Below are positions 2-26,560 of a DNA stretch of 28,954 nt, piece by piece. This DNA comes from Campylobacterota bacterium (GTDB lineage Bacteria; Campylobacterota; Campylobacteria; Campylobacterales; Sulfurimonadaceae), in contig JAYEKO010000087.1 of the NCBI GenBank assembly GCA_034661055.1, positions 1 to 28,954 on the forward strand, in the 5' to 3' direction. The position numbers and the translations under genes were made by a program. The number at the start of each line of letters is the position of its first letter. Within the stretch, counting starts at the first letter, position 1. The notes below the pieces were generated by a model. The model ran no database searches. It was not told the origin of the DNA and saw only the letters and a program-made list of their open reading frames with translations.

Positions 2-844
2 CAACTTGGGAATCTCTCTATCTCTATGATTCACTTAGGAGAGCAGACAGGGACACTTGCAGAGTCCATTGACAGACTTTCAGAGATCCTGCAAAACATT
101 CATGACAACCGTGTCAAACTTAAAAAAGCGACACGATACCCTCTCATTACCATTATTGCTATGGCTATTGCATTTACTGTGGTCATCACCTTTGTTGTTC
201 CACAGTTTGAAGAGCTTTTTAAAGAGAGTAAAACAGAGTTGCCATTTCCAACACTCATTTTACTATGGCTTGAAAATGCCATTTCCAGCTATGGTCCCTA
301 CATATTAGCAGGTGCTGTTGTTCTAGCTAGCATCTACTCTTACATGTATAAAAAAAGTGAGACCTTAGCACTAAAAAGTGATAAGTTTATTTTAAAAGTC
401 TATATTGTCGGAGCCGTTACCAAGTATGCTATGCTTGGGCGTTTTGTCTATATTTTTAATGTTTTAGTTCATGCCGGTATTCCTATTGTCGATGCTTTAA
501 AAGCTGCTACTGGGGTAGTTGACAACCGCTACATGAAACAGCAGTTTAATAAGATTACTGATGCCGTTGAGGAGGGGCGCTCTTTACATGAGGGGTTTGA
601 GTCATCAAACTTTTTTGAGAGTATGATTTTGCAGATGTTAAAAGCGGGTGAAGATGCGGGAGCACTCAATGTGATGTTAGATAAAATAACTTCGTACTAT
701 AATGCAAAATATGATAATATTATAGATAATGTATCGACCATGATTGAGCCTATTTTAATTGGTGCAATTGCAGGGTTTGTGCTTGTCTTAGCCCTTGGAA
801 TTTTCTTGCCAATGTGGTCCATGGCAGAAACTATGGGAATGTAA
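2..844 (+). CDS. Type II secretion F / PilC-family inner-membrane platform protein, 5'-truncated by the window edge
   Basis: Two T2SSF-type repeats (GEQTGTL..SI..L; GEDAGAL..ML), plus YP..T, VVPQF..LF, LP.PT and C-terminal IEP...IFLPMW motifs. The frame is open back to position 2. Confidence 0.92.
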   Translation, partial: QLGNLSISMIHLGEQTGTLAESIDRLSEILQNIHDNRVKLKKATRYPLITIIAMAIAFTVVITFVVPQFEELFKESKTELPFPTLILLWLENAISSYGPYILAGAVVLASIYSYMYKKSETLALKSDKFILKVYIVGAVTKYAMLGRFVYIFNVLVHAGIPIVDALKAATGVVDNRYMKQQFNKITDAVEEGRSLHEGFESSNFFESMILQMLKAGEDAGALNVMLDKITSYYNAKYDNIIDNVSTMIEPILIGAIAGFVLVLALGIFLPMWSMAETMGM

Positions 845-864
845 GTTTATAAGGAGAAATATTA

Positions 865-960
865 ATGGAAAATGAAGCTGGAACACTCACTATTGCTATT
901 GTCTCAGCAATAGTTTTAGGCTTTGCTTTGTGGATAATTCATAAAGTTAATGAGATATAA
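865..960 (+). CDS. 31-aa single-TM small protein (MENEAGTLTIAIVSAIVLGFALWIIHKVNEI)
   Basis: AAGGAG RBS at 851-856, ATG 865, TAA 958-960, one hydrophobic segment. It is below the ORF-track length cutoff. Confidence 0.7.
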   Translation: MENEAGTLTIAIVSAIVLGFALWIIHKVNEI

Positions 961-985
961 AAATGAGAATTACTTCGTATTTGGA

Positions 986-1429
986 CTAGTCGTCAGTTAA
1001 AGTAAATGTTCCATTAGTAGAGTTGTATGCCCAGTGTCGTGTTTTACAAGGTTTTCCAGTTTTACATGTAGAAGCACCTTTAGCACTGTTTGATGCCGGA
1101 CCTTTGTATTGACCACCTGAAAGCGTCCATCCAATAGCAGTAGCATTTTTTAAGATAGCATCTAATGGGCTTCCTAAAGAGTCAGGGTATCCATGAGTAT
1201 TCAAGTCAGCAGAAGCAATAGAAGCACCACAGGTAAATGTTCCCTCATTAATAATCCACTCTCCGTTACAAGCATCGAGGGCTACTTGAACCGACGAAGC
1301 AGTAGAAAGTTCCGCAGAGATTTTAGAGTTGTCACTGAGTCCGGAGAACTTTGGAACAGCAACGGATGCCAACACACCAATAATGACAATTACAAAGATT
1401 AGTTCAATTAGCGTGAAGGCTTTTTTCAT
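986..1429 (-). CDS. Prepilin-type (type IV pilin / T2SS pseudopilin-like) protein
   Basis: Class III signal MKKA|FTLIELIFVIVIIGVLASVAVPKF with Glu5; four Cys in the globular part. Confidence 0.9.
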   Translation of the reverse strand: MKKAFTLIELIFVIVIIGVLASVAVPKFSGLSDNSKISAELSTASSVQVALDACNGEWIINEGTFTCGASIASADLNTHGYPDSLGSPLDAILKNATAIGWTLSGGQYKGPASNSAKGASTCKTGKPCKTRHWAYNSTNGTFTLTDD

Positions 1430-1434
1430 AAATA

Positions 1435-1884
1435 CTAATATGTAAGAGTATCTAATTGATCATCATTGGCAATTACATTACATTTAGCTGTTGTTTTTGA
1501 ATCTGTAAATCCATCACAATTAATAACTAATGTAACATTTCTATCTGCCGCATTCAAGGTAAGTGTTGCAACTACTGCACTGTCTGTAAATATTGCAGTC
1601 TGTCCATTTCCAGCGCCACTTCCACCTATTACCCAACCTTTTCCTGAAATAGTTACTAAATCACTCAACGTAACATTTGCTGAAGTTTTAGTTTCCTCTA
1701 AGTCAACTATATTGACATAAGCAGATGGTATGGAACTAAATGCATCGCTCGCTACTTTTACGGTATTCGAAGCCTCAGCATTTTGCTTTAAGTTAGCAAA
1801 CTTAGGAATTGCAACAGCCGAAAGCACCCCAATAATTACAATAACAAAGATCAATTCAATAAGTGTAAAACCACTTCTCTTCAT
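1435..1884 (-). CDS. Prepilin-type (type IV pilin / T2SS pseudopilin-like) protein
   Basis: Class III signal MKRSG|FTLIELIFVIVIIGVLSAVAIPKF; C-terminal Cys pair (CDGFTDSKTTAKC); AAGGGT RBS upstream. Confidence 0.92.
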   Translation of the reverse strand: MKRSGFTLIELIFVIVIIGVLSAVAIPKFANLKQNAEASNTVKVASDAFSSIPSAYVNIVDLEETKTSANVTLSDLVTISGKGWVIGGSGAGNGQTAIFTDSAVVATLTLNAADRNVTLVINCDGFTDSKTTAKCNVIANDDQLDTLTY

Positions 1885-2037
1885 CTTCTTACCCTTTTAC
1901 GTTTAATTTTAATACTTTTAGTATAGGAAAGCTCTCGTTAAAGCCACCTTAACCATACCACTATATCGACACTTATTGCAGTTTTTAAACTTATTTTACC
2001 TATGATACTACAAAATTTACATGTAAAAGATTTAAAA

Positions 2038-3945
2038 ATGGCAAACTTATTACAATATGAAGACTCTCCTTACCTGCAACAGCATAAAGACAACCCCCTA
2101 GATTGGTACCCATGGGGTGATGAAGCCTTCCAAAAAGCAGAGCGTGAAGATAAACCTATTTTCATCTCCATAGGCTACAGCTCATGTCACTGGTGTCACG
2201 TTATGGAACATGAAGTATTTGAAAATGAGGAAGTGGCTGCTTTTATGAATGAGCACTTTGTTAGCATTAAAGTTGACCGTGAAGAGCGTCCCGATATTGA
2301 CAAGTATTATCAAGAGGTACATATGCTACTCAATCGTCGTCCAGGAGGCTGGCCTACCTCAATTTTTTCTACTCCACAAAACAAACCTATTTTTGCAGCA
2401 ACTTACCTACCTGTAGAGAGTAAAAATCAGTCCATGGGGTTTTCAGAGCTAACACGAATTATTAGTGAAAAAATTAGTGAAAATGACCCAAAACTTTATG
2501 AAAATGCCGATGAGATTGAGGGCTTCTTAAAGCACCACACGCATCCAAAAGAGGCAACACACCTTAAATTTGAGATTTCAAATACCTTTATTAAGCAGTG
2601 TAGTGACAACTTTGAAAAAAGTTTTGGAGGCTTCTCGGTTGAACCGAAATTTCCGCACACTTCAACACTTAACTCTTTAATGAATCTCTTTTTACTTACA
2701 GGAAACGACGATGCCAAAGATATGGCAGTTAAAACACTAACATCGATGCAGCGTGGTGGTATTTATGACATCATAGACGGAGGCTTTTGCCGCTACAGTG
2801 TTGACAGAGAGTGGCTGGTTCCACATTTTGAGAAGATGACCTACGACAATGGTCTGCTTTGTGAACTTTACGTTAAAGCATTTCACAGTTTTGGCAATGA
2901 GACCCTTAAAAGAACTGCCATAGAAATTGCAGAGTTTATGCTTGAGTTTATGAGTGAGAACGCTCAATTTTACTCAGCGAGTGATGCTGACACGGAGGGG
3001 GAAGAGGGAAAATATTTTATCTACAATTATGATGAGACGCTTAAACTCTTAACGCAGAACGGATTTACTCAAAAAGAGAGTGAGACAATCTTAATTAAAC
3101 TAAATATCTCACCAAATGGAAATTTTGAAGGCAGCTCTATTGCTAGAGTGGAAGACAACTCTAGACCAGTGTGGTTTTCTAAGGTACAGAAGCTCTTAAA
3201 AGAGCGGCGAACGAAAAGGATTTACCCGTTTATTGATAAAAAAGTTCAAACCTCATGGAATGCAATGATGATTAAAGCCCTATTTGCACTTAGCAGTATT
3301 GATGCTTCCTACAAAGAGATTGCCGTAAAACATCTAAACGCTTTACTAGAGATAATGCTTATTGACAACAGACTCTACCACTCTACACTTATTCATAAAA
3401 CTCCAAAAATAGAAGCGTTCCTTGAAGATTACGCCTACCTAGGAGTCACACTTATTGCAGCGTATGAGAATACCTATGATGAGCACTATTTAATTAAAGC
3501 ACAGAAGATGGCAAATGCTGCATTAGAGCGATATTACGACAAAGGAATGTGGTACTTTAGTAGAGATGAGTTTGAGACCAAAGCAGATATATCTGACAGC
3601 TCTTATCCTGGTTCAGTAGGTGTTATTGTTGACTTGCTCCTCTCGCTTGGTTCACTTCTAGATGAAAAATATCGCCATTTTGCTTTTAAAACATTAGAGT
3701 ACTACTCTTATGATTTAGCACGAAAACCTATTAATTCACCTTACCTTTTTAATCAGATGATTCGCTACATTAAAGAAGATAGAATTATTAAGAGTAATTT
3801 ACATGTAGGTTTTTTACACTACCCCTACGCCCTTAAAAAGTTTGATCCACAGAGTGATGGCTATATGATTTGTGGATTACAGAGCTGTTTTGCAACGACA
3901 AGTAACATAAGTGAAATTGATACGCTAATTTATAACTCTTTTTAA
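2038..3945 (+). CDS. YyaL/SSP411-like protein (DUF255 thioredoxin domain plus six-hairpin glycosidase-like domain)
   Basis: [50 protein letters not shown] motifs. The start at ATG 2038 (MANLL) is preferred over 2002 because it matches the family N-terminus. Confidence 0.93.
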
Positions 3946-3990
3946 ACTACCCTGCTCTATAATAGCTATAAGATGATTTAAAGGATAAGC

Positions 3991-4923: not shown

Positions 4924-4936
4924 AAGGATTTTTATT

Positions 4937-5050
4937 ATGATTAAAACAACTGTTCTTGTTGGAGTTTTACTAATGCTCACACTGCTGCAAAGCGGCTGTG
5001 AACGTAATGACTATCAGCATCCAGGTTACCGTAGCGGGCAGCATAAGTAA
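4937..5050 (+). CDS. 37-aa putative lipoprotein (MIKTTVLVGVLLMLTLLQSG|CERNDYQHPGYRSGQHK)
   Basis: AAAGGA RBS immediately after the ppk2 stop, ATG 4937, hydrophobic h-region and lipobox-like QSG-C. Confidence 0.7.
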   Translation: MIKTTVLVGVLLMLTLLQSGCERNDYQHPGYRSGQHK

Positions 5051-5075
5051 GTAATTTACATGTAAATTACTTACT
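5046..5075. repeat. Perfect 30-bp palindrome AGTAAGTAATTTACATGTAAATTACTTACT between convergent genes; possible bidirectional terminator
   Basis: Base-by-base check shows 15-bp arms with no spacer, centred at 5060/5061 on the iterated TACATGTA core. Confidence 0.9.
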
Positions 5076-6545
5076 CTAAATAAAAGAGAGAATTTCTCTC
5101 TCAATATTCTCTTTTTCAATCACACCATTGTGTGTAATTTCTTTATTAAAAAGCTCTTGGATCATTGCAGGAATAGCAACATTAGCTTCTTTTGAAATAG
5201 ACTCTAACGCATCAATATCTTGCGTATCATTCTCACCTGTTAGTGCATTAGCAATTGTTGGCGAAAATTTTGTCCACTCTGCCGTTGAGTAAGCAATCAT
5301 CACTAACTCTTTAGATTTACATGTATCGTACGTTTTGAAACATGTCGCAGTATGTGGGTCCATCAAGTACCCATCGTTAAAAGCACTTTTGATGTACGCT
5401 TTCCCCTCATCATCACTGCAGTAGTCTGCTACAAATAGCTCTTTTAGTTGTGTTAGCTCCTGTGCCGTAAGTTCATACATCTGCTTTGTATCTAAATCGT
5501 GCATTAACTCACGAGTTCGCTCTGCTCCATAAAGTCCGTAAAGAACACGTTCTACATTAGATGACTTTAAAATATCCATTGCAGGTGATGTAGTTAAAAT
5601 TAACTCACTATCACGCATATCGTAAATACCTGTATTGATAAGACGTGTTAAAATATTATTCTCGTTAGATGCAATAACTAACTTTTCAACCGGAAGACCC
5701 ATCTCCATCGCATAGTATCCACCAAGAACATTTCCAAAGTTTCCACTTGGTACATTAAGATAGACATTCTCACCTATAGCAACAGCACCTTGGCGAACCA
5801 CTTCGAGATAGTTGTGAATATGATAGATAATCTGAAAAATAATACGTCCAAAGTTTACTGAGTTAGCTGCTGAAAGAGCAATATTTTTCTCTTTTAAAGT
5901 CGCTTTAAAGCTACTTGAAGCCAAGAGGTTTTTCAAAGCACTCTGAGCATCATCAAAGTTTCCTTCAATTCCAATAACTTTTAAGTTAGTCGCCTCTTCT
6001 GTTACCATTTGGAGACGCTGTACATCAGAAGTCCCTTTGGCTGGGTACATACATGCCACTTTAACATTACTCTGATTTTTAAAAGTCTCTAGTGCAGCAG
6101 GACCGGTATCACCACTAGTTGCTGCTAAAATAAGATAATTCTCATTTCGCTCTTGTGCAATAGCAGAAAGCACTTTTCCAAAAGGCTGCAGTGCCATATC
6201 TTTAAAAGCACGGGTAGGTCCATGGTAAAGTTCACTCACATAAAGATCATCTTTTACTTTTACCACAGGAACAGGATTACTTGGGTCATCAAACTTATCA
6301 TAAAGCGCCAAAGCGTCATCTATAACATCTTGTTTTACATCTATATTAAATACATGTAAAAAATCTGCTGCAAGCTCTTTGTAGTGAGAATTTCTATGTT
6401 TTTCTAAAAAATCCAGACCTAATTTAGGTAGATCTTTAGGTACATATAGACCACCAAACGAAGCGATTGGGCTTAAAATTGCCTCAGAAAAAGTCACCTC
6501 TACAGGGTGCTGTCCATCATTTCCACGTGTTTCAATAAAGTTCAT
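5076..6545 (-). CDS. thrC: Threonine synthase
   Basis: ELYHGPT.AFKD.AL (PLP lysine), AATSGDTG, SANSVNFGR, VPSGNFGN, SPAMDILKSSN.ER, DPHTA motifs. Confidence 0.96.
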   Translation of the reverse strand: MNFIETRGNDGQHPVEVTFSEAILSPIASFGGLYVPKDLPKLGLDFLEKHRNSHYKELAADFLHVFNIDVKQDVIDDALALYDKFDDPSNPVPVVKVKDDLYVSELYHGPTRAFKDMALQPFGKVLSAIAQERNENYLILAATSGDTGPAALETFKNQSNVKVACMYPAKGTSDVQRLQMVTEEATNLKVIGIEGNFDDAQSALKNLLASSSFKATLKEKNIALSAANSVNFGRIIFQIIYHIHNYLEVVRQGAVAIGENVYLNVPSGNFGNVLGGYYAMEMGLPVEKLVIASNENNILTRLINTGIYDMRDSELILTTSPAMDILKSSNVERVLYGLYGAERTRELMHDLDTKQMYELTAQELTQLKELFVADYCSDDEGKAYIKSAFNDGYLMDPHTATCFKTYDTCKSKELVMIAYSTAEWTKFSPTIANALTGENDTQDIDALESISKEANVAIPAMIQELFNKEITHNGVIEKENIEREILSFI

Positions 6546-6584: not shown

Positions 6585-8219
6585 CTAAGAGATAGCTAAT
6601 AATACAATCTCTTTTGCTTCATCTTGAATCTGCTTTAGGTGCTGAGCAGAGATAAAGCTCTCAGCATAAATTTTGTAGATATCTTCAGTTCCTGATGGTC
6701 GTGCTGCAAACCAGCCATTTTTTGTCACTACTTTTAGACCACCAATTTTAGCACTGTTTCCACTTGCTTTTGTAAACTTATCTACAATCGTTTCACCTGC
6801 TAAAGTTGTTGAAGAGATATTATCTGCAGTAAGATTTTTTAGTAAGGCTTTTTGCTCAAATGTAGCTGGAGCATCAATACGGGCATAGTAAGATACTCCA
6901 AACTTTTTTTCAAACTCTCCATAGATCTCACCAGGATCTTTTTTAGTAGTAGCCCTAATTTCCAAAGCAAGTAGGTTCATAATAATCCCATCTTTATCAG
7001 TAGAAAAAGCACTACCGTCATGACATAAAAATGAAGCCCCAGCGCTCTCTTCACCACCAAAACCAAGCGAGCCGTTATTTAGCCCCTCAACAAACCATTT
7101 AAAACCAACTGGTACTTCGTGAACATCTCTACCTAAAGAGTCTGCTACTCTGTCAATCATAGAGCTTGAAACAGCTGTCTTTCCAATGCCAAGACTATGA
7201 GACCATGCGTGACGATGTGAAAACAGATACCAAATCGAAACAGCTAAATAGTGATTAGGATTCATAAGACCGACACTTGGTGTAACAATACCGTGACGAT
7301 CAAAATCGGGGTCATTGGCAAATGCAATATCATACTCATCTTTTAATGCAATAAGAGAGCTCATGGCATAAGCAGATGAACAGTCCATACGAATTTTTCC
7401 ATCATGATCACAACTCATAAAGCTAAAGGTCGGATCAACATGCTCATTTACGATGTCCATGTTGAGACCATATATCTCATTAATTTTTTGATACACCGCA
7501 ATTCCAGATCCACCTAAAGGATCAACGCCAATCTTTAAGTTAGCAGCCTTAATTGCTGCCATATCAATAACAGTCTCTAACCCTAAGACATAGGGAGTAA
7601 TAAAGTCAAACTCTTCAAGAAAATCACTCTTTAATGCTACATCCAATGAAACTTTTTGAACTTCAGCAAGTCCACTGTTTAAAATTTCATTGGCGCGCTT
7701 CTCAATAAGAGAAGTTACGTCAGCATCGGCAGGTCCACCATGAGGAGGGTTGTATTTAAAACCACCATCACTAGGAGGATTATGTGATGGCGTAATGACA
7801 ACACCATCACAAAGCACTTTACTGTCTCTATTGGCTTGTAAAATAGTAAATGATACAACAGGGGTTGGTGTATAACTATCATTTTTTGCAATTTTACATG
7901 TAACTCCATTTGCAACACATACCTGTATTGCACTCAACTGTGCCGAAGTGGACAGTGCATGAGTGTCTTTTGCAATAAACAGTGCTCCTGTAATACCTGC
8001 AGATTTTCGGTACTCACACACTGCCTGAGTAATGGCAAAAATATGTGCTTCATTAAAACTTCTCTTACTGCTGCTTCCACGATGTCCTGATGTTCCAAAC
8101 GAGACACGCTCGGTCGGCACTTTAACATCAGGATTTTGAGTGTAGTATGCTGATATTAACTGAGGAATATTTTCTAAAATATCCTTAGGAGCCTGTTTTG
8201 AAGCTAGTATGTGTGCCAT
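6585..8219 (-). CDS. pgm: Phosphoglucomutase (alpha-D-glucose-1,6-bisphosphate-dependent)
   Basis: [16 protein letters not shown] (catalytic Ser), [46 protein letters not shown] motifs. Confidence 0.96.
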
Positions 8220-9682: not shown

Positions 9683-10087
9683 TTAGTATTCTAAAATACG
9701 CGGTAACTCTTTTGCTTGAGCAATCCAACCTTGCACTTGTGAAAGAACCGGAACTTTACGTACTAGGTTACGCTCTGCATTTACCTCTTCCATTTTAACC
9801 ACTAGGTTCTCTGCGTTACGAGTTGCTAATTGAGGGATTGTATTGACATTAGAGAACTCTAATAGATCAGCATACTGAGAACTAATCCCTTTCACACGTG
9901 ATAAGTCTGCTTTGTTTACCCATGTCAAGATTAACTTCTCACTAATTCCTGACTCTTTTGCTACCGCTACACGACCAGCTGGTTTGGCACCCGCTTCAAG
10001 AAGTTTCTCTAGTGTAGCAATTCCTGCCTCTTTTAACTTACTTTGGTATGTTTCACCAATACCCTCAATATCTGAAAGTTTTGCCAT
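9683..10087 (-). CDS. DUF4332 domain protein (helix-hairpin-helix)
   Basis: L.DIEGIG..Y..KL..AGI, WVN.ADL.RV.GI..QYADLLE and V.GWI.QAK.LPR..EY match this family. Confidence 0.88.
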   Translation of the reverse strand: MAKLSDIEGIGETYQSKLKEAGIATLEKLLEAGAKPAGRVAVAKESGISEKLILTWVNKADLSRVKGISSQYADLLEFSNVNTIPQLATRNAENLVVKMEEVNAERNLVRKVPVLSQVQGWIAQAKELPRILEY

Positions 10088-10138: not shown

Positions 10139-13100
10139 TCAATTAGAATTACCAACTAACTTTTTTCTAAATACAACAGAGTAGAGAAGCGGTATAAAGA
10201 TTAAATTCAGTACCGTTGCCCAGATAATTCCAAAACCAAGCGACACTGCCATTGGTTGCAGTATCATTGCTTGACCTGAGGCAAAGAAAATAAGTGTTGA
10301 AAGACCCAACACAGTTGTAATAGAAGTAAGTAAAATAGGACGCAGACGTGTTCGTGCCAACTGCATTAACTCCTCAAAAGAGCTTGCCTTTTTAATAAAA
10401 CTGACCATTATTAGCCCATCATTAACCACAACACCCATCAAGCCAACAACACCAAGCATGCCAGGCATTGTCATATTGAGCCCAATTAACAGATGACCCA
10501 CAAATACGCCTAGTAGCACTAAAGGAATGGTACTTAAGACAATAAGTGATAGTTTAAGTGAATCAAAGAGCCATACTAAGGTAATAAAAATTAAAATTAT
10601 GGCTGCAATACCTGCTTGTGCCATCTCCTGTTTTGTTTTAGCATTCTCCTCTTGTTCTCCTTTAATATCTACACTATAGCCATCATCTTGCAACTCTTGA
10701 AGTGTTGCCTCAATACCTTGCATCAACTCTTCAGATGTAATGATTTTTTTATCTAGTGATGCGACCACAGAACGTATTCGTTTTCCATTCTCTTTGTTTA
10801 TTTTTACATATGACTTTTCAAGAATAAAATCAGCTACATCACAAAGAGCAATAAACTCTCCAGAGCCTGGTATCTGTAACTCAAACCCATAAATTGAGGA
10901 GAGTGTATCTTTTTTATTACCCTCAATACGGATACGCACCAACCCCTCTTCATTAAACATCTTGCCATACTCACCTTTTAAGTAATATGAGCGCAACTGT
11001 GCATTTAAGACCTGCTCATTAAATCCCAGTTTTTGTCCATAGTCATTAACTCTAAGCTTTAACTCTTTCTCACCTGTATCAGCATCATTAGCGATGTCAT
11101 GAACACCAACAATCTCTCCTAGTCTTGATTGAAGCTTCTCAAGTCCACTAAGTAATGCCTCGTCGCCCTTACCACCTAAGGCAATCTCAACATCATGTGC
11201 TACAATTCCTGTTCCTGCAATAGTGACACTGAGCTCTTCAAAAAGTATTTCACCATCTTTTTCAACACTTTTTAGTGGTTCCATCCACTCTCGAACATTT
11301 TCGCTTATGGACTTGGCAGTATTATGACGTTTTAGCAGATCTGCGTCATACTCTAATGATAAAATAGGATTTATATATTTATTAAAAAGATTATCTGGTG
11401 CACGTTCATGTAGGTCAATAAACACCTGAAAAAGGTTTTCATTTAGCTCTGCCTCATTTTTAGCATTCATTCTCATACCTACAACAGAAGTAACTGAAGA
11501 CATATCTTCTTTGTCTAGCTTTTCAAGAAGTATTTTTTCAATTTTAGAGACAATAGCCTCTGTTTCATCAAGATCATTGTTAATATTTACCTTTCCACTC
11601 ACATATACCTGAGTCACATCAAAGTCAGGGAAAAGTTGGAATTTGCTGTTCTTAATAAAGAGTGCAGTAGCCCCCACAATAAGTGTGACCATAATAATTA
11701 GTGAGAGAATTCGTCTCTTAAAAAGTACATGTAAAACGGTGTCATACCATCTCCACAGATGCTCCCAAATAGAGTGTGTCATATGCCCCTCTTTACGAAT
11801 ACGTAAGAACTCATATGAGTGTAGTGGTAGAAAATAGAATGCTTCAAATAGTGAGCTAATTAGTAAAATAGAAATCATAACTGGAAGAATTTTAATAAAT
11901 GTCCCCATCTCTCCAGATAAAATAAGTAGCGGTAAAAAAGCAAAAACAGTCGTTGCTGTAGCAGTTAGTACTGCTGGGAACATCTCTAAAGAGCCAATAA
12001 CAACAGCTTCACGTCTATCTTTTCCCTCTTCTAGATGTCGGTAGATATTTTCAGCAACTACAATCGCCTCATCTACTAACATTCCAAGAGCAATCAGCGC
12101 TCCTAGTAAAGAGAGCATATTAAGACTGTAGCCTAAGTAATTTGTAGCAACAAGCCCAATCATAAAACTAAGAGGAATTCCCATGGCAACAACAAGAGCA
12201 ATCCCACGATTAACAAAGACCAACATAGCTAGAAATACCAACATCAAGCCAAACAAAATGTTTGCAAAGACTGTATTGAGACGGTTTTTAATCCAGACCG
12301 AAGTATCTGTATAGATTTCAAACTTTATGTTAGGATATTTTTTAGTATAATCTTTCATTACTGTTCTGATCTCTTTAACTAAAGCGATAGAACTTCCTGT
12401 TTTTGCCTTATTAATATTGACTGAAATATTTTTAACACCGTTATAGTGTGACAACTCACTCTCGTCACTCAACTCAAATGAGATGTCAGCTATGTCTCCT
12501 AAACGAAGACGTTTACTGCCAACGGTTATGAGGCTGTCTTCAATACTTTTTTGCTCTTTTTCACCATTATAGGTACTAATATAGAGATGTTCGCCCTGCT
12601 CTTTTATGGTTCCAATAGGAAAAATAGAACTTAAGTTTTGTAGGGCAGAGATAACCAAGTTGACATCTAAGTCATAAGCTCTGATTTTTTTCTCATTAAT
12701 GCGAATAACCAACTCTACATCAGCATCACCACGAATACTAATATCACTCAGGTCTTTAAAACCGCTAAGTGAGCTTTTTAATTCATCTGCATATTTTAGA
12801 AGCTCTACAGTTGGAACATCCCCAGCTATAGCAATTAAAACTAAAGGAATCTCATTTACATGTATTTTAGCAATTGGCTCATTCATGTCCGATGGTAGAT
12901 CACGCTTAATTTTTGCTATAACATCTTTAACATCATTTAAAACACTGATATTGTTAGAATTTGGTTTGATATCTACTGTCATGGAGAATACACCATTTTT
13001 AATCACAGTCTGTACATCATCAAGTTCGTTAATATTTTTTAGATCATCTTCAATGTTTTTTACAGCCATCTTATCTAAGACATCAGCACTTGTACCTGAA

Positions 13101-13258
13101 TAAGCACCACTAATACTAATTTTATCCATCTGAACAGGAGGGAAAATCTCTTTTGGAATGTTAATGTAAGCAAACACTGAAAGTAGAATAATAAAGAGCA
13201 TAAACATATGATTTAAAAGGGGTTTATCAATTGCGAATTCAATAAAACGTTTTATCAA
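10139..13258 (-). CDS. RND efflux transporter permease (AcrB/AcrD/AcrF family)
   Basis: 1039 aa with 12-TM architecture, GMLVDEAIVVAENI, G.VVNDG and R.RPILLTS.TT..GL motifs; TTG start. Confidence 0.93.
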   Translation of the reverse strand: MIKRFIEFAIDKPLLNHMFMLFIILLSVFAYINIPKEIFPPVQMDKISISGAYSGTSADVLDKMAVKNIEDDLKNINELDDVQTVIKNGVFSMTVDIKPNSNNISVLNDVKDVIAKIKRDLPSDMNEPIAKIHVNEIPLVLIAIAGDVPTVELLKYADELKSSLSGFKDLSDISIRGDADVELVIRINEKKIRAYDLDVNLVISALQNLSSIFPIGTIKEQGEHLYISTYNGEKEQKSIEDSLITVGSKRLRLGDIADISFELSDESELSHYNGVKNISVNINKAKTGSSIALVKEIRTVMKDYTKKYPNIKFEIYTDTSVWIKNRLNTVFANILFGLMLVFLAMLVFVNRGIALVVAMGIPLSFMIGLVATNYLGYSLNMLSLLGALIALGMLVDEAIVVAENIYRHLEEGKDRREAVVIGSLEMFPAVLTATATTVFAFLPLLILSGEMGTFIKILPVMISILLISSLFEAFYFLPLHSYEFLRIRKEGHMTHSIWEHLWRWYDTVLHVLFKRRILSLIIMVTLIVGATALFIKNSKFQLFPDFDVTQVYVSGKVNINNDLDETEAIVSKIEKILLEKLDKEDMSSVTSVVGMRMNAKNEAELNENLFQVFIDLHERAPDNLFNKYINPILSLEYDADLLKRHNTAKSISENVREWMEPLKSVEKDGEILFEELSVTIAGTGIVAHDVEIALGGKGDEALLSGLEKLQSRLGEIVGVHDIANDADTGEKELKLRVNDYGQKLGFNEQVLNAQLRSYYLKGEYGKMFNEEGLVRIRIEGNKKDTLSSIYGFELQIPGSGEFIALCDVADFILEKSYVKINKENGKRIRSVVASLDKKIITSEELMQGIEATLQELQDDGYSVDIKGEQEENAKTKQEMAQAGIAAIILIFITLVWLFDSLKLSLIVLSTIPLVLLGVFVGHLLIGLNMTMPGMLGVVGLMGVVVNDGLIMVSFIKKASSFEELMQLARTRLRPILLTSITTVLGLSTLIFFASGQAMILQPMAVSLGFGIIWATVLNLIFIPLLYSVVFRKKLVGNSN

Positions 13259-13272: not shown

Positions 13273-14118
13273 CTAAAAAAGTGATTTAAAAAGTTTTCCC
13301 ACTGCCTCTTCTGCCTCTTCTAGCTCTTTATTATCATTAGGCTCAGGTTTATCTGTAGGTGCTGGGTGCAGCGGTTCTTTCACCGATGGTGGCGTTGCTG
13401 ATACCGATTTTTGGTTGGGATTAAGTAGCATCTGTATCATTGTCGCTGCATGCTGTTTCATCATAGCATCAGCACTCGTGTCGTGGGTAATATCTACTCC
13501 TGATGGCACGTCAAAATGTGATACGTCAACAGCTCCTTTCTCAATCTTTGTAGCCTCTTTTTTTAGAGTCATTCCTAAAGTAGTACCTTCCATTTTCAAC
13601 AAAATAGCCGTATTATGAATACTATAAGTAGTTGCTCCCATCATGCTTGCTTTATCACAACTGTAACCGTGAATCATCGCAGCATTAAATTTTACGCTGC
13701 CATCCATTGTTTGTGCTACGTTAGTACCAAACTTCTTAGAATTTTTCTGTACGGTTTTTTTATCTGATGATGAGAGTTTCTCATACTCCTGCTTCAAATA
13801 CTTTTCCATATTTGTCACTTTGGATCCACTTTTACTCAACATATCAACAGTATAGATCCAGTCTGGAGTAGTAATTGTAAGTTTATCTTCCTCTTTTGAA
13901 AATCCAAACATAATCATACTCGTCTTCTCTCTTTCTGAGAGGTATTTACCGTAATCTTTAATGTAAAGAACCGAACTTCCTTGAGTTGTACCATCTAGGC
14001 TATAACTAATACTAGCACTTTTAAATGGTGCACGATGTTCAAAAGGATTGTTTGAACTGGCAAACAGTGTCACAGCAAAAAGCAACAAGCTTATAGAAAA
14101 AGAGCGTAAAAAAATCAT
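13273..14118 (-). CDS. Secreted hypothetical protein (DUF4412-like beta-rich fold suspected)
   Basis: N-terminal signal peptide, I.GY.C.K and F.VP.G motifs, Pro-rich linker, C-terminal amphipathic GKLFKSLF. Confidence 0.7.
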   Translation of the reverse strand: MIFLRSFSISLLLFAVTLFASSNNPFEHRAPFKSASISYSLDGTTQGSSVLYIKDYGKYLSEREKTSMIMFGFSKEEDKLTITTPDWIYTVDMLSKSGSKVTNMEKYLKQEYEKLSSSDKKTVQKNSKKFGTNVAQTMDGSVKFNAAMIHGYSCDKASMMGATTYSIHNTAILLKMEGTTLGMTLKKEATKIEKGAVDVSHFDVPSGVDITHDTSADAMMKQHAATMIQMLLNPNQKSVSATPPSVKEPLHPAPTDKPEPNDNKELEEAEEAVGKLFKSLF

Positions 14119-14201: not shown

Positions 14202-14479
14202 TAAAACAGTGTATCTAATATCTGGTTTTTAAACCGAATTGATTCTACTTTTGAAGTAATCACTCGATTTTCCTCTTTTAATGCATTAAACTCACGTTTA
14301 AGTACTGCTATATCACGACTTTTGTAGTAAATTTGATTCTGAACATAAATTTTAGGAAATGAGACAAGAAGAATCATTGTAACAGTTAGTAACATACCAA
14401 CAAGGTATCTTAGGCCCATTTTTGGCAGTGGAGTTATAATACCCTGCACCTCTTCTAAGATATCACTTTTTTCACTCAT
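14201..14479 (-). CDS. FtsL-like cell division protein (single TM plus coiled coil)
   Basis: Directly downstream of rsmH with an ATGAGTGA overlap (start 14479, MSEKSD). TM segment followed by PKIY..N.IYY.SR and a heptad coiled coil; rsmH-ftsL is conserved synteny. Confidence 0.7.
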   Translation of the reverse strand: MSEKSDILEEVQGIITPLPKMGLRYLVGMLLTVTMILLVSFPKIYVQNQIYYKSRDIAVLKREFNALKEENRVITSKVESIRFKNQILDTLF

Positions 14480-15404
14480 AGCTTCGTTCCATCTTGAAAA
14501 TACGCATTTTTGCACTACGACTTCGAGGATTTTTCTTTAACTCATCACTTTTGGCCATAATTGGCTTTTTGCTAATGACTCTACCAAGTGCATTATTATT
14601 ACCGCAAGTACATCGCATAGCCTCACTGCTACAGAGGCAATTTTTAGCCCATTTGGAAAAACGCTGCTTGACAATTCTATCTTCTAAAGAGTGAAATGAG
14701 ATAATAGCGATGTAAGCAGTGTGCAATTTAGATGCTTCAATGGCATCTAAAAGACGCTGTAGCTCACCCAACTCATCATTAACTTCAATACGGATGGCTT
14801 GCATAACTAATGTTGCTGGATGAATTTTCTTACCCCGTGGTGCATAAGGCTTGACTGCATCAGAAAGCTCCTTAGATGAGCTAAAAGGTCGCTTCTGCAT
14901 AATTACAGAGGCAATTTTTTTATAGTTTCTAATTTCACCATATTCACGTAAAATACGCTCAAGCTCTGATTGACTATACCCATTAACAACATCAGCAGCA
15001 CTAAGCGGTGCCTCTGGATCCATCCTCATATCAAGGACATCACTCTCATATGAAAAGCCTCTATCCATCTGGTCCAGCTGTAGCGATGAGACACCAATGT
15101 CGGCTAAAACACCTTTAATTTTTTGAACATCTTCATTTTGAATTACTTTCTCTATAACAGAAGAAAAACGTCCTTTATAAATCTCAAAATGCCCTGTAAA
15201 TGGAGCAAGCCGCTTACTTGAAAAGTCAATTGCAGTCTGGTCTTGGTCAATTCCAATTAACTTAATCTTTGCATTTGACTCTAAAATCATTGAACTATGT
15301 CCAGCATAACCCATGGTACAGTCAATAATCACTCCCTCTTGTATCTCACTAAAAGCATCAATCACCTCTCGATACAGTACAGGAATATGGGGAATATCTT
15401 GCAA
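14472..15404 (-). CDS. rsmH: 16S rRNA m4C1402 methyltransferase
   Basis: HIPVL, DCTMG.AGHS, D.GVSS.QLD, LDMRM, QAIRIEVN.EL, ISFHSLEDRIVK, NPRSRSAK motifs; TTG start. Confidence 0.97.
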   Translation of the reverse strand: MQDIPHIPVLYREVIDAFSEIQEGVIIDCTMGYAGHSSMILESNAKIKLIGIDQDQTAIDFSSKRLAPFTGHFEIYKGRFSSVIEKVIQNEDVQKIKGVLADIGVSSLQLDQMDRGFSYESDVLDMRMDPEAPLSAADVVNGYSQSELERILREYGEIRNYKKIASVIMQKRPFSSSKELSDAVKPYAPRGKKIHPATLVMQAIRIEVNDELGELQRLLDAIEASKLHTAYIAIISFHSLEDRIVKQRFSKWAKNCLCSSEAMRCTCGNNNALGRVISKKPIMAKSDELKKNPRSRSAKMRIFKMERSYE

Positions 15405-15439
15405 GCTTGCCCTTAATATAATTTTTACATGTATTTTAC

Positions 15440-15472
15440 ATTATAACGACTTAAAACATTTTATTGTACAAT
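15440..15472. promoter_or_regulatory. Divergent -10 boxes: TATAAT (minus strand, 15440-15445, for rsmH) and TACAAT (plus strand, 15467-15472, for the aldolase-like gene)
   Basis: Consensus or near-consensus hexamers in a short divergent intergenic region. Confidence 0.55.
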
Positions 15473-15478
15473 GCTTCT

Positions 15479-16072
15479 ATGAATATACAACGCATTAAAC
15501 AACAGTTAGGCACGCTGTCATTGTCAATGTTTCGAAAAGATTTTTTTGGAATATATCACGGTTCAATCTCTGCTCGGGTAGAATCAAATCTCTTTGTAAT
15601 AAATCACAAAGAGGCCATTTTTGATGATATTAATGAGAACTCTTTAGTGGAACTCTATTTTAATAAAGACTACCGTTGGAAAAAAGCTAGTCTTGATGCA
15701 GAGATTCACAAAGAGATATATCAACAGCATAGTGACGCAAAGTTCATCTCTTTCACAATGCCACCATTTACTGTAGCATATTCTCTAATGCACAACGTAA
15801 TTTCACCACTTGATTACTTTGGGAAAAAAGAGTTTCCTGCTATTTATGTCTATGATCCTAAAGAGTTTGATGACTGGTATGACAGAGCTACCACTGCTAT
15901 CTCTCAATATTTTTCTCATAGCCAATCCAATATAATAGTCATTAAGGGCTACGGTGTTTATGCCTACAATCGTGATCTGCATGAGATGGCAAAACAGTTG
16001 GCAATTTTAGAGAAAAGCTGTCGTCTTTTAATGCTCAATTCTAAAACAGCCGCGCTCGATATAGATAACTAA
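15479..16072 (+). CDS. Class II aldolase/adducin N-terminal domain protein
   Basis: G.ISAR, S.DA.IH..IY, G.GVY.Y.RD motifs. ATG 15479 is preferred over the TTG at 15464. Confidence 0.8.
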   Translation: MNIQRIKQQLGTLSLSMFRKDFFGIYHGSISARVESNLFVINHKEAIFDDINENSLVELYFNKDYRWKKASLDAEIHKEIYQQHSDAKFISFTMPPFTVAYSLMHNVISPLDYFGKKEFPAIYVYDPKEFDDWYDRATTAISQYFSHSQSNIIVIKGYGVYAYNRDLHEMAKQLAILEKSCRLLMLNSKTAALDIDN

Positions 16073-20299: not shown

Positions 20300-20602
20300 A
20301 TGTCTTCTTTTACTAAACTCATAAAAGCCAAAACTCTCCTTGGCTTAAATGAGAAAGCCACTCTTCAAGAGATTAAACTAAAATATAAAAACTTAATGCG
20401 ACAATGGCATCCAGACAAGCATCAAGATGATATTAAAAGTGCTACACAGATGAGTGCCAGTATTAATGAAGCTTATGAGACCGTATTAAAATATACACAA
20501 GAGTATGAGTTCCCATTTGATGAAGAAAATCTTCAAAAGAAGACGTTTACAGCCCAAGAGTGGTGGGAACAGAAGTTCGGTACCAAAAAAGACACTATTT
20601 AG
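20300..20602 (+). CDS. Small DnaJ-domain protein
   Basis: LLGL...A...EIK..Y..L...WHPDK and INEAYE motifs; C-terminal EWW..KFG. Confidence 0.9.
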   Translation: MSSFTKLIKAKTLLGLNEKATLQEIKLKYKNLMRQWHPDKHQDDIKSATQMSASINEAYETVLKYTQEYEFPFDEENLQKKTFTAQEWWEQKFGTKKDTI

Positions 20603-21351: not shown

Positions 21352-21842
21352 GATTTAATAGTTCTTAATAGCATCACACGTCTTACAAATAGTAGCGCTA
21401 ATGCAAAGGCTAGAATTTTAAAGTCAATTTCACTTGCAATATGTAACGCTTCAAATGCTTCACTCGTAGTTGCTTCACTGCCAAGTGACTGCATCTCCAG
21501 AATTTTAGGTGTATAGACGGCACTAAACATAAGCCCAGTAGCCAAAACACCAAATGTTGCAGCTTGTGCTACAGCATCACGTCGAAGTGCTCTATACTCC
21601 AAAACTTCATACAGTGCGACAACTGCTGTTAACACATAAATCCAGTAAGAGAATCTATGAAATATTTCTCCCATCAAAAGTCCTTCATTATAGTGATCCA
21701 AAAGTGCCATTGTAAGATGATTATCTGAATTAAATATAACAGGTGCTACCATGATTCCAAGTACTAAAACGCCTCCTAATGTCGCGCCTAAAAATAACAA
21801 ATAGGCTAACTCAACATAGATATTTCTTTTTTTAATCATCAC
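21348..21842 (-). CDS. DUF4149-like 4-TM membrane protein
   Basis: G..VAPVIF, G.LMG.IF.R, P.I and F..LH..SE motifs. Confidence 0.78.
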   Translation of the reverse strand: MMIKKRNIYVELAYLLFLGATLGGVLVLGIMVAPVIFNSDNHLTMALLDHYNEGLLMGEIFHRFSYWIYVLTAVVALYEVLEYRALRRDAVAQAATFGVLATGLMFSAVYTPKILEMQSLGSEATTSEAFEALHIASEIDFKILAFALALLFVRRVMLLRTIKS

Positions 21843-22668
21843 TCATCCTTAAAATAAATCCTCTATCAAACTTGGAATAATCTTTATAAAATTCTAATGA
21901 TTGTACCTTAAAGTCTCTAACATAGGCTTCAACCTTAGCTTTTTGATCATATCCCATCTCACATGCGAAATAATTTATGTGGCGTTTCTCTACCTCATTT
22001 AAAAGTTCTTTAATAATCTCGTCCCCTACACTTCCACCAAAAAGTGCCAAATCAGGCTCATATGAGAGATTCTGTTCTAAGGGAGCGTCCATAGCAATAT
22101 AGGGAGGGTTAGAAACAAGAAAATCAATAGGCTCACTAATAGTAGTCAGCAGACTTCCTTCACGAAGTTCAATTCTATCACTCAACTCAAATTTTTCAAT
22201 ATTTATTTTAGCAACTTCTAAAGCTTTAGGACTAATATCTACTCCGATAAACCGAGCCTTAGGCAGGTGCTGTGCTAAAATAATACTAATTATCCCACTT
22301 CCAACTCCTACTTCAGCAATGGTAAGTTCATCATTATGATTTACATGTAAAAGAACCTTGTCAATTAAAAGTTCTGTTTCGGGACGAGGGATTAAAGCAC
22401 CCTCTTTAATAAAGAAGTTTTGAGAATAGAAACTAACATCATTTGTGATGTACTCTAAAGGTTCATGTTTGGTACGCCTCTCGATCCAGTTAAAAAGAGT
22501 TGGTGTACTTGGCACTATATCATTTACATGTAAAATAAGCCAGAGCTGGTCTTGCTTCATATAGGCACGAAAGAGCAACTCTGCTTCACGCTTTGGGTTT
22601 TCAACCACACTCTCTAAAGCTAGAGAGATAAACTCAAGCCACTCTTTTACACTTCTTGAGGCGGACAT
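21832..22668 (-). CDS. prmC: Release factor glutamine methyltransferase
   Basis: EPLEYI, LIPRPETE, GVGSGII, D.S..AL and SNPPYI motifs. Confidence 0.95.
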   Translation of the reverse strand: MSASRSVKEWLEFISLALESVVENPKREAELLFRAYMKQDQLWLILHVNDIVPSTPTLFNWIERRTKHEPLEYITNDVSFYSQNFFIKEGALIPRPETELLIDKVLLHVNHNDELTIAEVGVGSGIISIILAQHLPKARFIGVDISPKALEVAKINIEKFELSDRIELREGSLLTTISEPIDFLVSNPPYIAMDAPLEQNLSYEPDLALFGGSVGDEIIKELLNEVEKRHINYFACEMGYDQKAKVEAYVRDFKVQSLEFYKDYSKFDRGFILRMSDD

Positions 22669-23897: not shown

Positions 23898-23941
23898 ATA
23901 TTACGCCTTAAATTTTTTTATCATTGTAGCAAAGAAGCTGT

Positions 23942-24133
23942 TTATTTTAATGGTACTTTAGCAACACTATCTTTAATTGGTAAGGCATCATCAACATCAG
24001 AATAGATAATTTTTGCACCTAGATAAATCGTACCAACGATAAGACCTGAAATAATAACAGCCCAAACAACACGTCGTTTTTCACCTTTTAAGGTATCATA
24101 ATCTTCAATATCTTGCAGTGTAGGTTCACTCAT
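23942..24133 (-). CDS. Small single-TM hypothetical protein (63 aa)
   Basis: AGGAG RBS, EPTL.DI.DY..L.GEK N-terminus and one TM segment. Confidence 0.8.
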   Translation of the reverse strand: MSEPTLQDIEDYDTLKGEKRRVVWAVIISGLIVGTIYLGAKIIYSDVDDALPIKDSVAKVPLK

Positions 24134-24284
24134 AATAATTCTCCTAGTTTTTCGAAATAATACAGAAGTTATTTAAGAGATGCTTTAAAAAAATCAACCT
24201 AATGTGACGCTTTAAGTATATTTTTTGTTTAGTTTATTCGTCATAAGTGGTTAGCTGTTTTAGATTGTATGCTACAATCTCACG

Positions 24285-24587
24285 ATGAAAAATGATTTTA
24301 TACCCAACATAGAACCAACACCTCAACTAACTAAAAAAGAGTGCCGTGTTTTTATGATGCTACTCTCACTGTCGCTAAAATTTGGCTCCACGGTGTTAGC
24401 ACTTATTGTTTGGTTAAGTTATGATCTATTTTACGGCGTTGCCTCCTTTTTGGTTTTTTACCTTGTCATTGGTATTATTCGTTCAAAACTGCTCCACGCC
24501 TCCATTCCAAAATTACAACAAGAGTACAACTACACTGATGAAGATATCGCTTCATGGTACGTTAAACGTGTTCTTGTTTGTGAATAA
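24285..24587 (+). CDS. Hypothetical 2-TM membrane protein (100 aa)
   Basis: Clean ORF with two hydrophobic helices, preceded by extended -10 TGCTACAAT at 24270-24278. Confidence 0.75.
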   Translation: MKNDFIPNIEPTPQLTKKECRVFMMLLSLSLKFGSTVLALIVWLSYDLFYGVASFLVFYLVIGIIRSKLLHASIPKLQQEYNYTDEDIASWYVKRVLVCE

Positions 24588-24607
24588 TTTACATGTAAAA
24601 GGTACCT

Positions 24608-26560
24608 ATGGCACTAGTTGATTTACTAAACGTCTCCAAACACTACGAAGCACAAAAAATTCTCGAAGCCATAAACTTTCATGTCGATGAGGGTGAGCGT
24701 ATTGTTATTGTCGGTAAAAACGGCAGCGGGAAATCGACCATTATGAAAATTGTCAACGGAACACTTGATGCCGATGAGGGTAAGCGAATCACCAAGCAGA
24801 ATCTGCATATTAAAATGCTATCACAAGTGCCCCAATTTCAAGATGGTCATAATGTACGTGAAGCAGTTGAGGCCGGCTTGGGTGAACTTAAAAGTGCACG
24901 CATACGTTTTGAGGAGATCTCAAATGAACTTACAACAGACTTTGAGAATCCTGAACTCTTAAAAGAACATTCAGAACTTTCCAACTTTCTTGACCATCAC
25001 AGTGCCTGGAATCTTGATGAAAAAATTGAGAGAGTACTGCAGTTTTTTCAACTCAAGGAGTATGAAAAGAAGTCTGTAATTATGCTAAGTGGTGGGGAGC
25101 AGCGTCGTGTTGCCCTCGCCTCACTTCTGCTTCAAAAACCAGATATCTTGCTTTTAGATGAGCCTACCAATCATCTTGATGTCTATATGGTAGAGTTTTT
25201 AGAAGAGCTTATTTTAAAGGAAAAGTTCACCCTTGTCTTTATTTCACATGATCGTTACTTTATAGATCAGATTGCGACAAAGACCATTGAGATAGAAGAT
25301 TGTAAGCTTCGTGAGTTCAAGGGAGGATATTCGAGCTACCTGACTCAAAAGTCAGAACTTCTTCGTACCATGCAGAAGCAGCATGATAACCTGCTGCGTC
25401 TTCTTAAAGCTGAAAATGAGTGGTTAGGCAAAAGTGTCCGTGCTCGTCTAAAACGAAATGAAGGACGAAAAAAACGGGTTCTTGATCTACGAGAAGATGC
25501 TAAAACCAACCCTGCTAGAATTCGAAAAATTCAAGTGGAGCTCCATCGTGAAGCCAAACATTTTAACCGTGATAAAAGTGTCAATAAGCAGAAGATGCTC
25601 TTTGAGGTTGAAAATTTGGAACTTACACTAGGGAACAAGCTCTTAGTTAAAAATTTCAATACTCGTATTTTACAGCGTGATGTCATCGCCATTGTCGGAC
25701 CAAATGGAAGTGGTAAATCTACTCTTTTAAAAGCCCTACTTGGACGACTTGAACCTACAGAAGGAACTATTAAACAGGGTGAGTTCAATATTGGATATTT
25801 TGATCAACACCGCGAAATGCTTGATGACTCCAAGAACCTCATTGAGACATTCTGTCCTATGGGTGGTGACCGTGTTGAAGTTCAAGGAAAAAATTTACAT
25901 GTATTTGCCTATCTGAAAAACTTTTTATTTCCACGAGAGTTCCTAGATAAAAAAATTGGAGTCTTAAGTGGTGGCGAGAAAAACCGTGTCGCCCTCGCCC
26001 TGCTCTTTACAAAACAAGTTGACTGTCTTATTTTAGATGAACCAACTAATGACTTAGATATTCCTACCATTAATATTTTAGAAGAGCAACTTCAAAGCTT
26101 TCCTGGCGCAGTTATTATTGTCAGTCACGATCGCTATTTTGTCGATAAGATTGCAAAAAAGCTCTTTGTATTTCAAGGCAATGGGCTAGTTGAAGAGTCA
26201 TTTCAGCAGTACAGCCAATATCTTGAGATAGAAAAAGAGATACGAGAAGTCTCACAGATAACAACCATATCTCAAGATGAAAAGCCTGCAAAAGAGAGTA
26301 AGCCAAAAACAAAAGCCCTAAAGCTATCTTTTAAAGAGAAAAAATCTTTAGATACTCTTCCTGTAGAGATTGAAGCACTAGAAGAGAAGATGGAGCAACT
26401 CAACAGCTGTCTAGCAGACCCCTCATGTTACGAAGAGAGAGGTATCTCAACGCTTGCCGATGAACTTACAGCTTTGAAAGAGACGTATGAACTCAAAATT
26501 GAAGCACTGCTTGAGATTGAAGAGAAACTTGAAGAGATAGAAGAAGGAAAATCTTCCTAA
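24608..26560 (+). CDS. ABC-F family ATPase, Uup-like
   Basis: Two ABC domains (GKNGSGKST/LSGGE/LDEPTNHLD and GPNGSGKST/LSGGEK.R/LDEPTNDLD), ARLKRNEGR linker, C-terminal KLSFKE coiled coil. Confidence 0.93.
   Translation: MALVDLLNVSKHYEAQKILEAINFHVDEGERIVIVGKNGSGKSTIMKIVNGTLDADEGKRITKQNLHIKMLSQVPQFQDGHNVREAVEAGLGELKSARIRFEEISNELTTDFENPELLKEHSELSNFLDHHSAWNLDEKIERVLQFFQLKEYEKKSVIMLSGGEQRRVALASLLLQKPDILLLDEPTNHLDVYMVEFLEELILKEKFTLVFISHDRYFIDQIATKTIEIEDCKLREFKGGYSSYLTQKSELLRTMQKQHDNLLRLLKAENEWLGKSVRARLKRNEGRKKRVLDLREDAKTNPARIRKIQVELHREAKHFNRDKSVNKQKMLFEVENLELTLGNKLLVKNFNTRILQRDVIAIVGPNGSGKSTLLKALLGRLEPTEGTIKQGEFNIGYFDQHREMLDDSKNLIETFCPMGGDRVEVQGKNLHVFAYLKNFLFPREFLDKKIGVLSGGEKNRVALALLFTKQVDCLILDEPTNDLDIPTINILEEQLQSFPGAVIIVSHDRYFVDKIAKKLFVFQGNGLVEESFQQYSQYLEIEKEIREVSQITTISQDEKPAKESKPKTKALKLSFKEKKSLDTLPVEIEALEEKMEQLNSCLADPSCYEERGISTLADELTALKETYELKIEALLEIEEKLEEIEEGKSS

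Follow-up and report, generated by a model that had tools for sequence, protein, structure and literature searches.

The eight-letter palindrome TACATGTA, which is its own reverse complement and carries CATG at its centre, occurs 17 times in the 28,954-nucleotide contig JAYEKO010000087.1 (C87, the window) of a member of the Sulfurimonadaceae, whereas 100 shuffled versions averaged 0.62 copies and never had more than 3, and it behaves as a DNA-level signal that has been written into the genes of this organism and has reshaped its proteome. We put the probability that it is a methylation-linked self-DNA tag for natural transformation at roughly one half. The parent genome (G000; 1.91 Mb, 36% GC, 83% complete, 92 contigs) contains 899 copies (471 per Mb), an 18.7-fold excess over an order-2 model and a 44-fold excess if the motif is masked from the model. 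It is the top palindromic octamer of the genome, the others among the top scores reaching at most about 3.6-fold, and it has the abundance demanded of elements like HIP1 of cyanobacteria, namely a palindromic octamer at hundreds of copies per Mb with at least 15-fold enrichment.

The 899 copies account for only part of the 6220 CATG sites of the genome, and the flanking preference is symmetric, extending TACATGTA to aATTTACATGTAAATt, with graded A/T flanks out to 14-16 bases. The copies are divided among coding sequence (719), intergenic DNA (147) and uncertain starts of open reading frames (ORFs; 33), at a density of 10-16 per 10 kb in spacers versus about 4.3 in coding DNA. Their spacing is near random (coefficient of variation 0.95; variance/mean 0.93 per 5 kb), with some surplus of pairs 11-17 bases apart. 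Close pairs in spacers include those at C15:33616, C8:24016 and C21:15547, and at least one pair frames a terminator-like hairpin; among spacer copies scored beside a stop codon, 45 of 85 are within 20 bases of it.

The imprint on the proteome was measured in 1748 mechanically called ORFs of at least 90 codons, with the first 15 codons dropped. Leu-His-Val (LHV) is motif-coded in 381 of 401 occurrences, where independent codon use predicts 9.3%, and the corresponding figures are 96/112 for Ile-His-Val (4.0% expected), 17/47 for Val-His-Val (6.4% expected) and 41/45 for Tyr-Met-Tyr (32% expected); Thr-Cys-Lys (TCK) is motif-coded in 115 of 121 cases and Thr-Cys-Asn in 37 of 44. LHV and TCK are enriched 5.3-fold and 6.5-fold and rank first and third by over-representation among the tripeptides of the proteome, their permutations occurring at 0.5-1.4 of expectation, while in the proteome of a motif-poor close relative (G006) LHV and TCK stand at 0.84 and 0.54 of expectation. 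The codon combinations thus depart from independent codon frequencies, and the excess is lacking in a motif-poor relative. His-Val without a preceding TA uses CATGTA in 117 of 499 cases, matching codon use. Only 20 LHV are not motif-coded, versus about 60 suggested by the permutations, which implies that existing tripeptides were converted synonymously and that about 330 more were created. By frame, coding copies number 45/494/180, versus 18/56/47 after synonymous shuffling; the palindrome is present in 522 of the 1748 ORFs, and about 4% of all His and Cys codons lie inside a copy. A preliminary description of the window had proposed that the palindrome fixes codon choice, and motif codons do dominate; the peptide, however, does not fix its codons, because it is the DNA word that created most LHV- and TCK-type peptides and took over most of those already existing. 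The mean enrichment of tripeptides encoded by published uptake sequences is 1.8-2.7-fold (PMC2817400), so that the DNA-level signal described here overrides protein sequence more strongly.

TACATGTA was written into genes by base substitution, replacing amino acids at tolerant positions, and DNA drives protein at these sites. In 918 orthologues at least 50% identical between G000 and G006, 365 of 371 aligned coding sites are ungapped and 6 touch a gap (background 0.5%), from which it follows that the coding sites arose by substitution, not insertion; 2 are exact in G006. The G006 residue is matched by 33% of motif-coded His (n = 259) versus 67% of other His, by 39% of motif-coded Cys (n = 92) versus 76% of other Cys, and by 26% of motif-coded Thr versus 62% of other Thr, and identity to G006 is 41% for site residues, 59% for neighbouring residues and 70% for all residues. 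Genes that share 45-60% identity with G006 have 6.75 TACATGTA per 10 kb, about six times the 1.09 of those at 85% or more; the same bias toward poorly conserved genes is described for uptake sequences by Findlay and Redfield (PMC2817400). Once present, sites are held against mutation, yet they turn over in deep time. Eight sites of the window, compared with three congeneric genomes, are exact in 11 of 22 comparisons where 8-13% would be expected, third positions being 51-60% identical; in 340 kb compared with a motif-rich genome of another family (G072), 8 of 46 sites are exact (2.6% expected), and in two motif-rich genera (G023 and G025), 0 of 15. These results agree with the earlier suggestions that the motif is maintained at the DNA level and may shape protein sequence.

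In the window, 11 copies lie in coding sequence and occupy all three frames, as the preliminary description had it and as a copy-by-copy check bears out. Six encode Leu-His-Val as TTA CAT GTA: those at 3800..3807 in a DUF255/YyaL-like gene (exact in G002; LYL in the G006 orthologue), 6351..6358 in thrC (5076..6545, minus strand; exact in two of three congeners, LDA in G006), 11726..11733 in an RND transporter gene (10139..13258, minus strand; exact in none of three congeners), 22342..22349 and 22525..22532 at codons 107 and 46 of prmC (21832..22668, minus strand; exact in three and none of three congeners, respectively), and 25896..25903 in an ABC-F gene (24608..26560, plus strand; exact in three of three congeners, with LHV in G006 too). 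Three encode Thr-Cys-Lys as ACA TGT AAA, in a prepilin-type gene (1063..1070 within 986..1429, minus strand), in thrC (5318..5325; exact in none of three congeners) and in the phosphoglucomutase gene Pgm (7895..7902 within 6585..8219, minus strand). The remaining two read Ile-His-Val (ATA CAT GTA) in the RND transporter gene (12857..12864; exact in two of three congeners, IKT in G006) and Tyr-Met-Tyr (TAC ATG TAT, frame 0) in a PilC/GspF-like gene (341..348 within 26..844, plus strand; YMI in G006). The earlier tally of six LHV stands: a seventh, at 2018..2025, arises only if the YyaL-like ORF starts at 2002, and orthologue alignment favours a start at 2038, which leaves this copy non-coding, 12 bases 5' of the likely start. 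The four other His-Val dipeptides in the ORFs of the window use CAC GTT, CAT GTT, CAT GTG and CAT GTC, likewise as first described. Further non-coding copies are found in the convergent ppk2/thrC spacer, inside a perfect 14-base palindrome (5057..5064), in the divergent spacer between the ORFs 14472..15404 (minus strand) and 15464..16072 (plus strand; 15426..15433), in the 20-base spacer 5' of the ABC-F gene (24590..24597), 18 bases 3' of the ABC-F stop codon (26579..26586), and upstream of the ORF 28488..28778 (minus strand; 28812..28819).

The distribution of TACATGTA among relatives is sharply divided, with 421-1449 copies in 13 of 61 genomes and 2-58 in the other 48. The 13 motif-rich genomes comprise five genera of the same family and one genome of a second family (f23), whose 41 genomes have between 5 and 1496 copies of the ten-mer. 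Named public records with TACATGTA or a looser form include Sulfurospirillum cavolei, Sulfurimonas bins, and a Sulfurospirillum plasmid (L331, NZ_CP059996.1) with 14 copies of TACATGTA in 39.9 kb. This plasmid bears a methylase copy (1692-2732) with four TACATGTA inside the gene, the end of which is overlapped by an IS21 transposase gene. The loci L112, L120, L063 and L048 have an excess of looser forms, namely ACATGTAA, ACATGTCA and ACATGTAG, which are possibly decaying or drifting versions of the palindrome; in G072 (L172, L261-L276) the flank form is CTTTACATGTAAAG, versus ATTTACATGTAAAT in G000.

The sole PF02086 methyltransferase of the genome, located between xseA and an sppA-like gene with no adjoining nuclease gene, is a divergent orphan adenine enzyme of the NlaIII/HpyI type, with CATG, the centre of the palindrome, as its predicted target. 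It is 52% identical over its whole length to a Helicobacter pylori enzyme (locus L092), and its relatives in three genomes adjoin IceA/NlaIII-type nucleases, a neighbour that marks the CATG-specific NlaIII/HpyI system (PMC13340068); the prediction of the target comes from homology. No match to PF01555 was found in the genome, and no solved structure matched the methylase profile. A full-length relative is present in 11 of the 13 motif-rich genomes, the two misses being about 80% complete, and in 8 of the 48 motif-poor ones, four more of which have only fragments or distant matches. The C-terminal loop is shortened or rewritten in all 11 motif-rich enzymes and kept in all 8 motif-poor ones. Ten-mer density within f23 has a median of 407 per Mb (range 69-499) in the 15 genomes whose enzyme is divergent, of 13.5 in the 14 whose enzyme is of the conserved type, and of 96 in the 12 without a match. 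Of 80 named loci, almost every one has the loop in its conserved form and 0-4 TACATGTA, two altered-loop loci having 7 each, and the H. pylori loci have none. In a tree of 37 enzymes chosen from 56, for which the loop was excluded, 17 enzymes of the divergent type, from both families, fall in a 19-row group (support 93 by the Shimodaira-Hasegawa-like approximate likelihood ratio test), and two genera of the Sulfurimonadaceae join one f23 genus with a support of 96, a grouping across families that suggests transfer or shared descent. Methylome data report orphan CATG enzymes forming N6-methyladenine (m6A) in Sulfurospirillum barnesii, Nitratifractor and Sulfurimonas denitrificans, with CATG modified at 99.1% by that of S. 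barnesii (PMC4752239), which would argue for plain CATG as the target, versus a narrowed specificity, if that enzyme corresponds to the divergent type. Other words of G000 are under-represented: GTATAC is strongly avoided (48 observed versus 440 expected), as are GATC, GGCC and GCATGC, and no methylase matching these was found in the incomplete assembly.

G006 has a different iterated word, CTCACGCA/TGCGTGAG, which occurs 962 times in 2.05 Mb (22-fold, 4.7 per 10 kb), a density equal to that of TACATGTA in G000. It is non-palindromic and nearly strand-neutral (about 55:45) with no replichore polarity, and its abundance is restricted to G006 among the 61 genomes, the others having at most 132 copies. 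With a near-match excess of 1.65, and with 302 of 430 occurrences of the top G006 tripeptide, Leu-Arg-Glu, motif-coded by it, CTCACGCA resembles a classical uptake sequence more closely than TACATGTA does. The loci of G006 with this word are L153-L171 and L177-L260; one of them, L180, includes a long tandem-repetitive stretch, likely to be the gene of a repetitive surface protein, in which words recur 60-117 times within 20 kb and which accounts for a local excess of CATCGATG. A possible further iterated word is ACCTCATC, found 11 times in 19 kb of a named Campylobacterota bin (L122; 0.22 expected), and AAATTT in a Campylobacter concisus locus hints at another; no second word was seen in many motif-poor loci. 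Word dialects are therefore shown for one genome, G006, and do not amount to a general rule.

Were TACATGTA a self-DNA tag, the methyltransferase would mark the central CATG on both strands, and a reader, probably dimeric, in the uptake or recombination pathway would favour that word when it is marked and set in its A/T flanks. Alleles with the tag would then replace untagged ones more often than the reverse, by molecular drive, until stopped by selection at the protein level, and the Leu-His-Val, Thr-Cys-Lys and Tyr-Met-Tyr peptides would be passengers of this drive. Lineages would differ in their word, that of G006 being CTCACGCA, and the word would fade gradually once methylase or reader was lost. 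The self-tag is favoured because a system with a homologous orphan methylase exists in Campylobacter jejuni, of the same order Campylobacterales, where CtsM-methylated DNA is needed at the first step of uptake (PMC8468864), because methylated HIP1 raises transformation (bioRxiv 2024.09.10.611283; PMC13756078), and because both the proteome imprint and the second word match uptake sequences in a genome that has competence genes. These include ComEC (PF03772), prepilin-type proteins and, as read from the sequences of contig C52 rather than from a family scan, a putative secretin and ATPase. The end of the PilC/GspF-like gene and two prepilin-type genes in the window (26..1884; prepilin N-terminal model over its cut-off, PilC/GspF models below theirs) are parts of a pilus or type II secretion system that could belong to the uptake machinery, and are mentioned as context only.

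Several observations weigh against the self-tag. One-mismatch variants of TACATGTA are not enriched genome-wide (0.92 of expectation). Graded binding by a receptor is expected to leave a halo of near matches around uptake sequences, and the missing halo counts against an uptake tag for that reason. Known uptake sequences are mostly non-palindromic. ComEC is present in 60 of the 61 genomes and hence does not discriminate motif-rich from motif-poor ones. No reader protein was found by subtractive ORF comparison against G006 and 340 kb of G072, in which 371 of 1748 ORFs had no G006 match and 7 candidates were shared with G072, the transposase being the one taken further, or by profiling of one prepilin-type candidate, the Cj0683-like pilin, which was rejected as the receptor since its 22 sequences follow family lines and no column separates rich from poor genomes. 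The conserved methyltransferase is widespread with almost no motif nearby, so that CATG methylation alone is insufficient. In f23, at least 60 ten-mers per Mb are reached by 7 of the 12 genomes without an enzyme match and by 5 of the 14 with the conserved type; no PF02086 match was found in G087 or G065, both 99% complete, where ten-mer densities are 389 and 211 per Mb, a conserved-type enzyme goes with fairly high motif numbers in G061 and G062, and G079 has the altered loop yet only 21 copies. Slow decay of the word after recent loss of the methylase could explain the rich genomes without an enzyme. No methyltransferase of the NlaIII/HpyI-like class was found in G006, and a second word is absent from 20-kb samples of G064 and G075, a third readable motif-poor sample being ambiguous. 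The 19-row methyltransferase group was not starred at its support of 93 and includes two conserved-type enzymes, and the genomes are related by descent, so that co-occurrence counts are not independent.

Alternatively, the word may be the site at which a dimeric nucleoid protein, or one that organises the chromosome, binds; its copies would then be kept by selection on chromosome structure, with the methylase only modulating binding. The strict palindromic core with its graded symmetric flanks, the lack of near-match excess, the retention of sites between species and the existence of motif-rich genomes without a methylase all accord with such a site, which has been proposed for HIP1 from its periodicity (PMC5861425), but TACATGTA is spaced nearly at random, its individual sites turn over (none of 15 exact in two motif-rich genera), and a close relative bears a non-palindromic word at equal density, which makes this explanation unlikely. 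We consider it similarly improbable that the word is created and restored, with no benefit, by a bias of repair or conversion that methylation directs, after Elhai's proposal for HIP1. The all-or-none character of the word, with the first-position variants AACATGTA and GACATGTA reduced to 0.58 and 0.65 of expectation, its density of about 1 per 2 kb, the tie to a divergent methylase and the 14 copies on the Sulfurospirillum plasmid would suit it. Elhai's model, however, requires MutS/MutL (PMC4390886), and MutL-dependent repair was rejected since MutL scored over the cut-off in none of the 61 genomes versus 11 of 14 controls; moreover, m6A in CATG leaves the TA flanks two bases away unexplained, barring a new enzyme, and the motif-rich genomes without a methylase stand against this explanation.

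It is very improbable that transposon excision left the copies as scars, by insertion of six bases at TA, or that a REP-type transposase produced them: a six-base insertion would preserve the reading frame and the genome does have a Y1 transposase, but the near-absence of gaps at the aligned sites refutes scars for the coding copies, including a Tc1/mariner excision footprint, and the Y1/RAYT-like transposase, present in 52 of 78 genomes including many motif-poor ones and not found in motif-rich G001, G002, G023 and G031, does not follow the motif. Least probable of all is that the word is a side effect of selection on protein or codon pairs for LHV and TCK; the His-Val frame does contain 494 of the 719 coding copies (69%), but all three frames are enriched, His-Val not after TA follows codon use, and intergenic enrichment together with low residue conservation refutes it. 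In G000 the Y1 (RAYT-like) transposase (C77:615-1379) lies directly 5' of priA. The corresponding place in G006 is taken by two pilin genes, which in G000 are found as a pair on C20, and close relatives of the transposase are single-copy in most f23 genomes. Elsewhere in the window, a DUF4332 helix-hairpin-helix protein (9683-10087, minus strand) has no G006 match, and two secreted-looking proteins (13273-14118, minus strand; 26626-27837, plus strand) have neither a Pfam nor a G006 match.

The phenomenon is of a kind already known, that of iterated palindromes and of uptake sequences that bias proteomes, and TACATGTA is neither HIP1 nor RAATTY. With HIP1 and the alternate iterated palindromes of cyanobacteria (PMC4390886, PMC5861425, PMC13756078) it shares a palindromic octamer at hundreds of copies per Mb (HIP1-type densities are 300-2700 per Mb in Elhai's Table 2, PMC4390886), flanks that prolong the palindrome, conservation of sites, a central target, here putative, of an orphan methylase, and exceptions without the methylase. 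It differs in word and phylum, the top octamer of this genome not being HIP1 proper (GCGATCGC), in being AT-rich and patchy within families, in the absence of MutL, and in having one m6A-type enzyme where cyanobacteria have DmtA and DmtC. With the uptake sequences of Neisseriaceae and Pasteurellaceae (PMC2817400), for which enriched tripeptides at poorly conserved positions are characteristic, it shares that feature, a density of about 1 per 2 kb, a preference for poorly conserved genes, unequal use of frames, a lineage-specific second word and some close pairs in spacers, whereas it is palindromic and apparently linked to a methylase and lacks both a one-mismatch halo and a receptor pilin that could be found. 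Polar motifs such as Chi and KOPS were rejected, TACATGTA being self-complementary and CTCACGCA nearly strand-neutral. M.HpyI/M.NlaIII (iceA-hpyIM) differ from the motif-rich enzymes, which have the altered C-terminal loop and longer branches.

The closest system within the order is CtsM/RAATTY of C. jejuni (PMC8468864, PMC10046745), which has a homologous orphan D12-class adenine methylase, a palindromic target with a central AT and, as here, ComEC and the Cj0683-like pilin; RAATTY, however, is a degenerate 6-mer found every 60 bases without TA flank preference, where TACATGTA is a strict 8-mer. The combination of a CtsM orthologue with an AAATTT-type excess is not found in G000. Among the 61 genomes a CtsM-like protein, about 31% identical to the methyltransferase of G000, is present only in G047, so that neither its presence nor mutual exclusion can serve as a correlate of the motif. 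TAAATTTA numbers 2247 in G047 versus 467 for the control, and 604 versus 222 in G044, where it is raised without a CtsM-like match. An analogy between the octamers TAAATTTA and TACATGTA was abandoned because AAATTT lacks the TA flank preference, and only the hexamer cores are comparable. No literature on TACATGTA in these bacteria was found among the papers listed by a search whose coverage takes in few subscription journals. The present analysis contributes a measurement across the whole proteome, evidence that the sites originated by substitution, a group of divergent methylases and, in G006, a second word.

Three decades on, what HIP1 does and how it arose are still open questions, in part since it is near-universal in cyanobacteria. 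In the present group, closely related genomes have anywhere from 2 to 500 copies per Mb of a similar palindrome, whose abundance largely follows a divergent methylase and which gives way to another word in a sister lineage; this variation, with the availability of culturable Sulfurospirillum, makes gain, decay and switching of the word directly testable. It is possible, if doubtful, that the uptake signals of free-living Campylobacterales form a third family of dialects: an NlaIII-type methylase, repurposed and spread between families, would write an m6A mark, a shared reader would recognise that mark inside TACATGTA, and other lineages would have switched to unrelated words, for example CTCACGCA. 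If true, this would unite the CtsM system of C. jejuni, HIP1 and the classical uptake sequences in one mechanism, and a mobile methylase would be able to rewrite about 4% of the His and Cys residues of a proteome.

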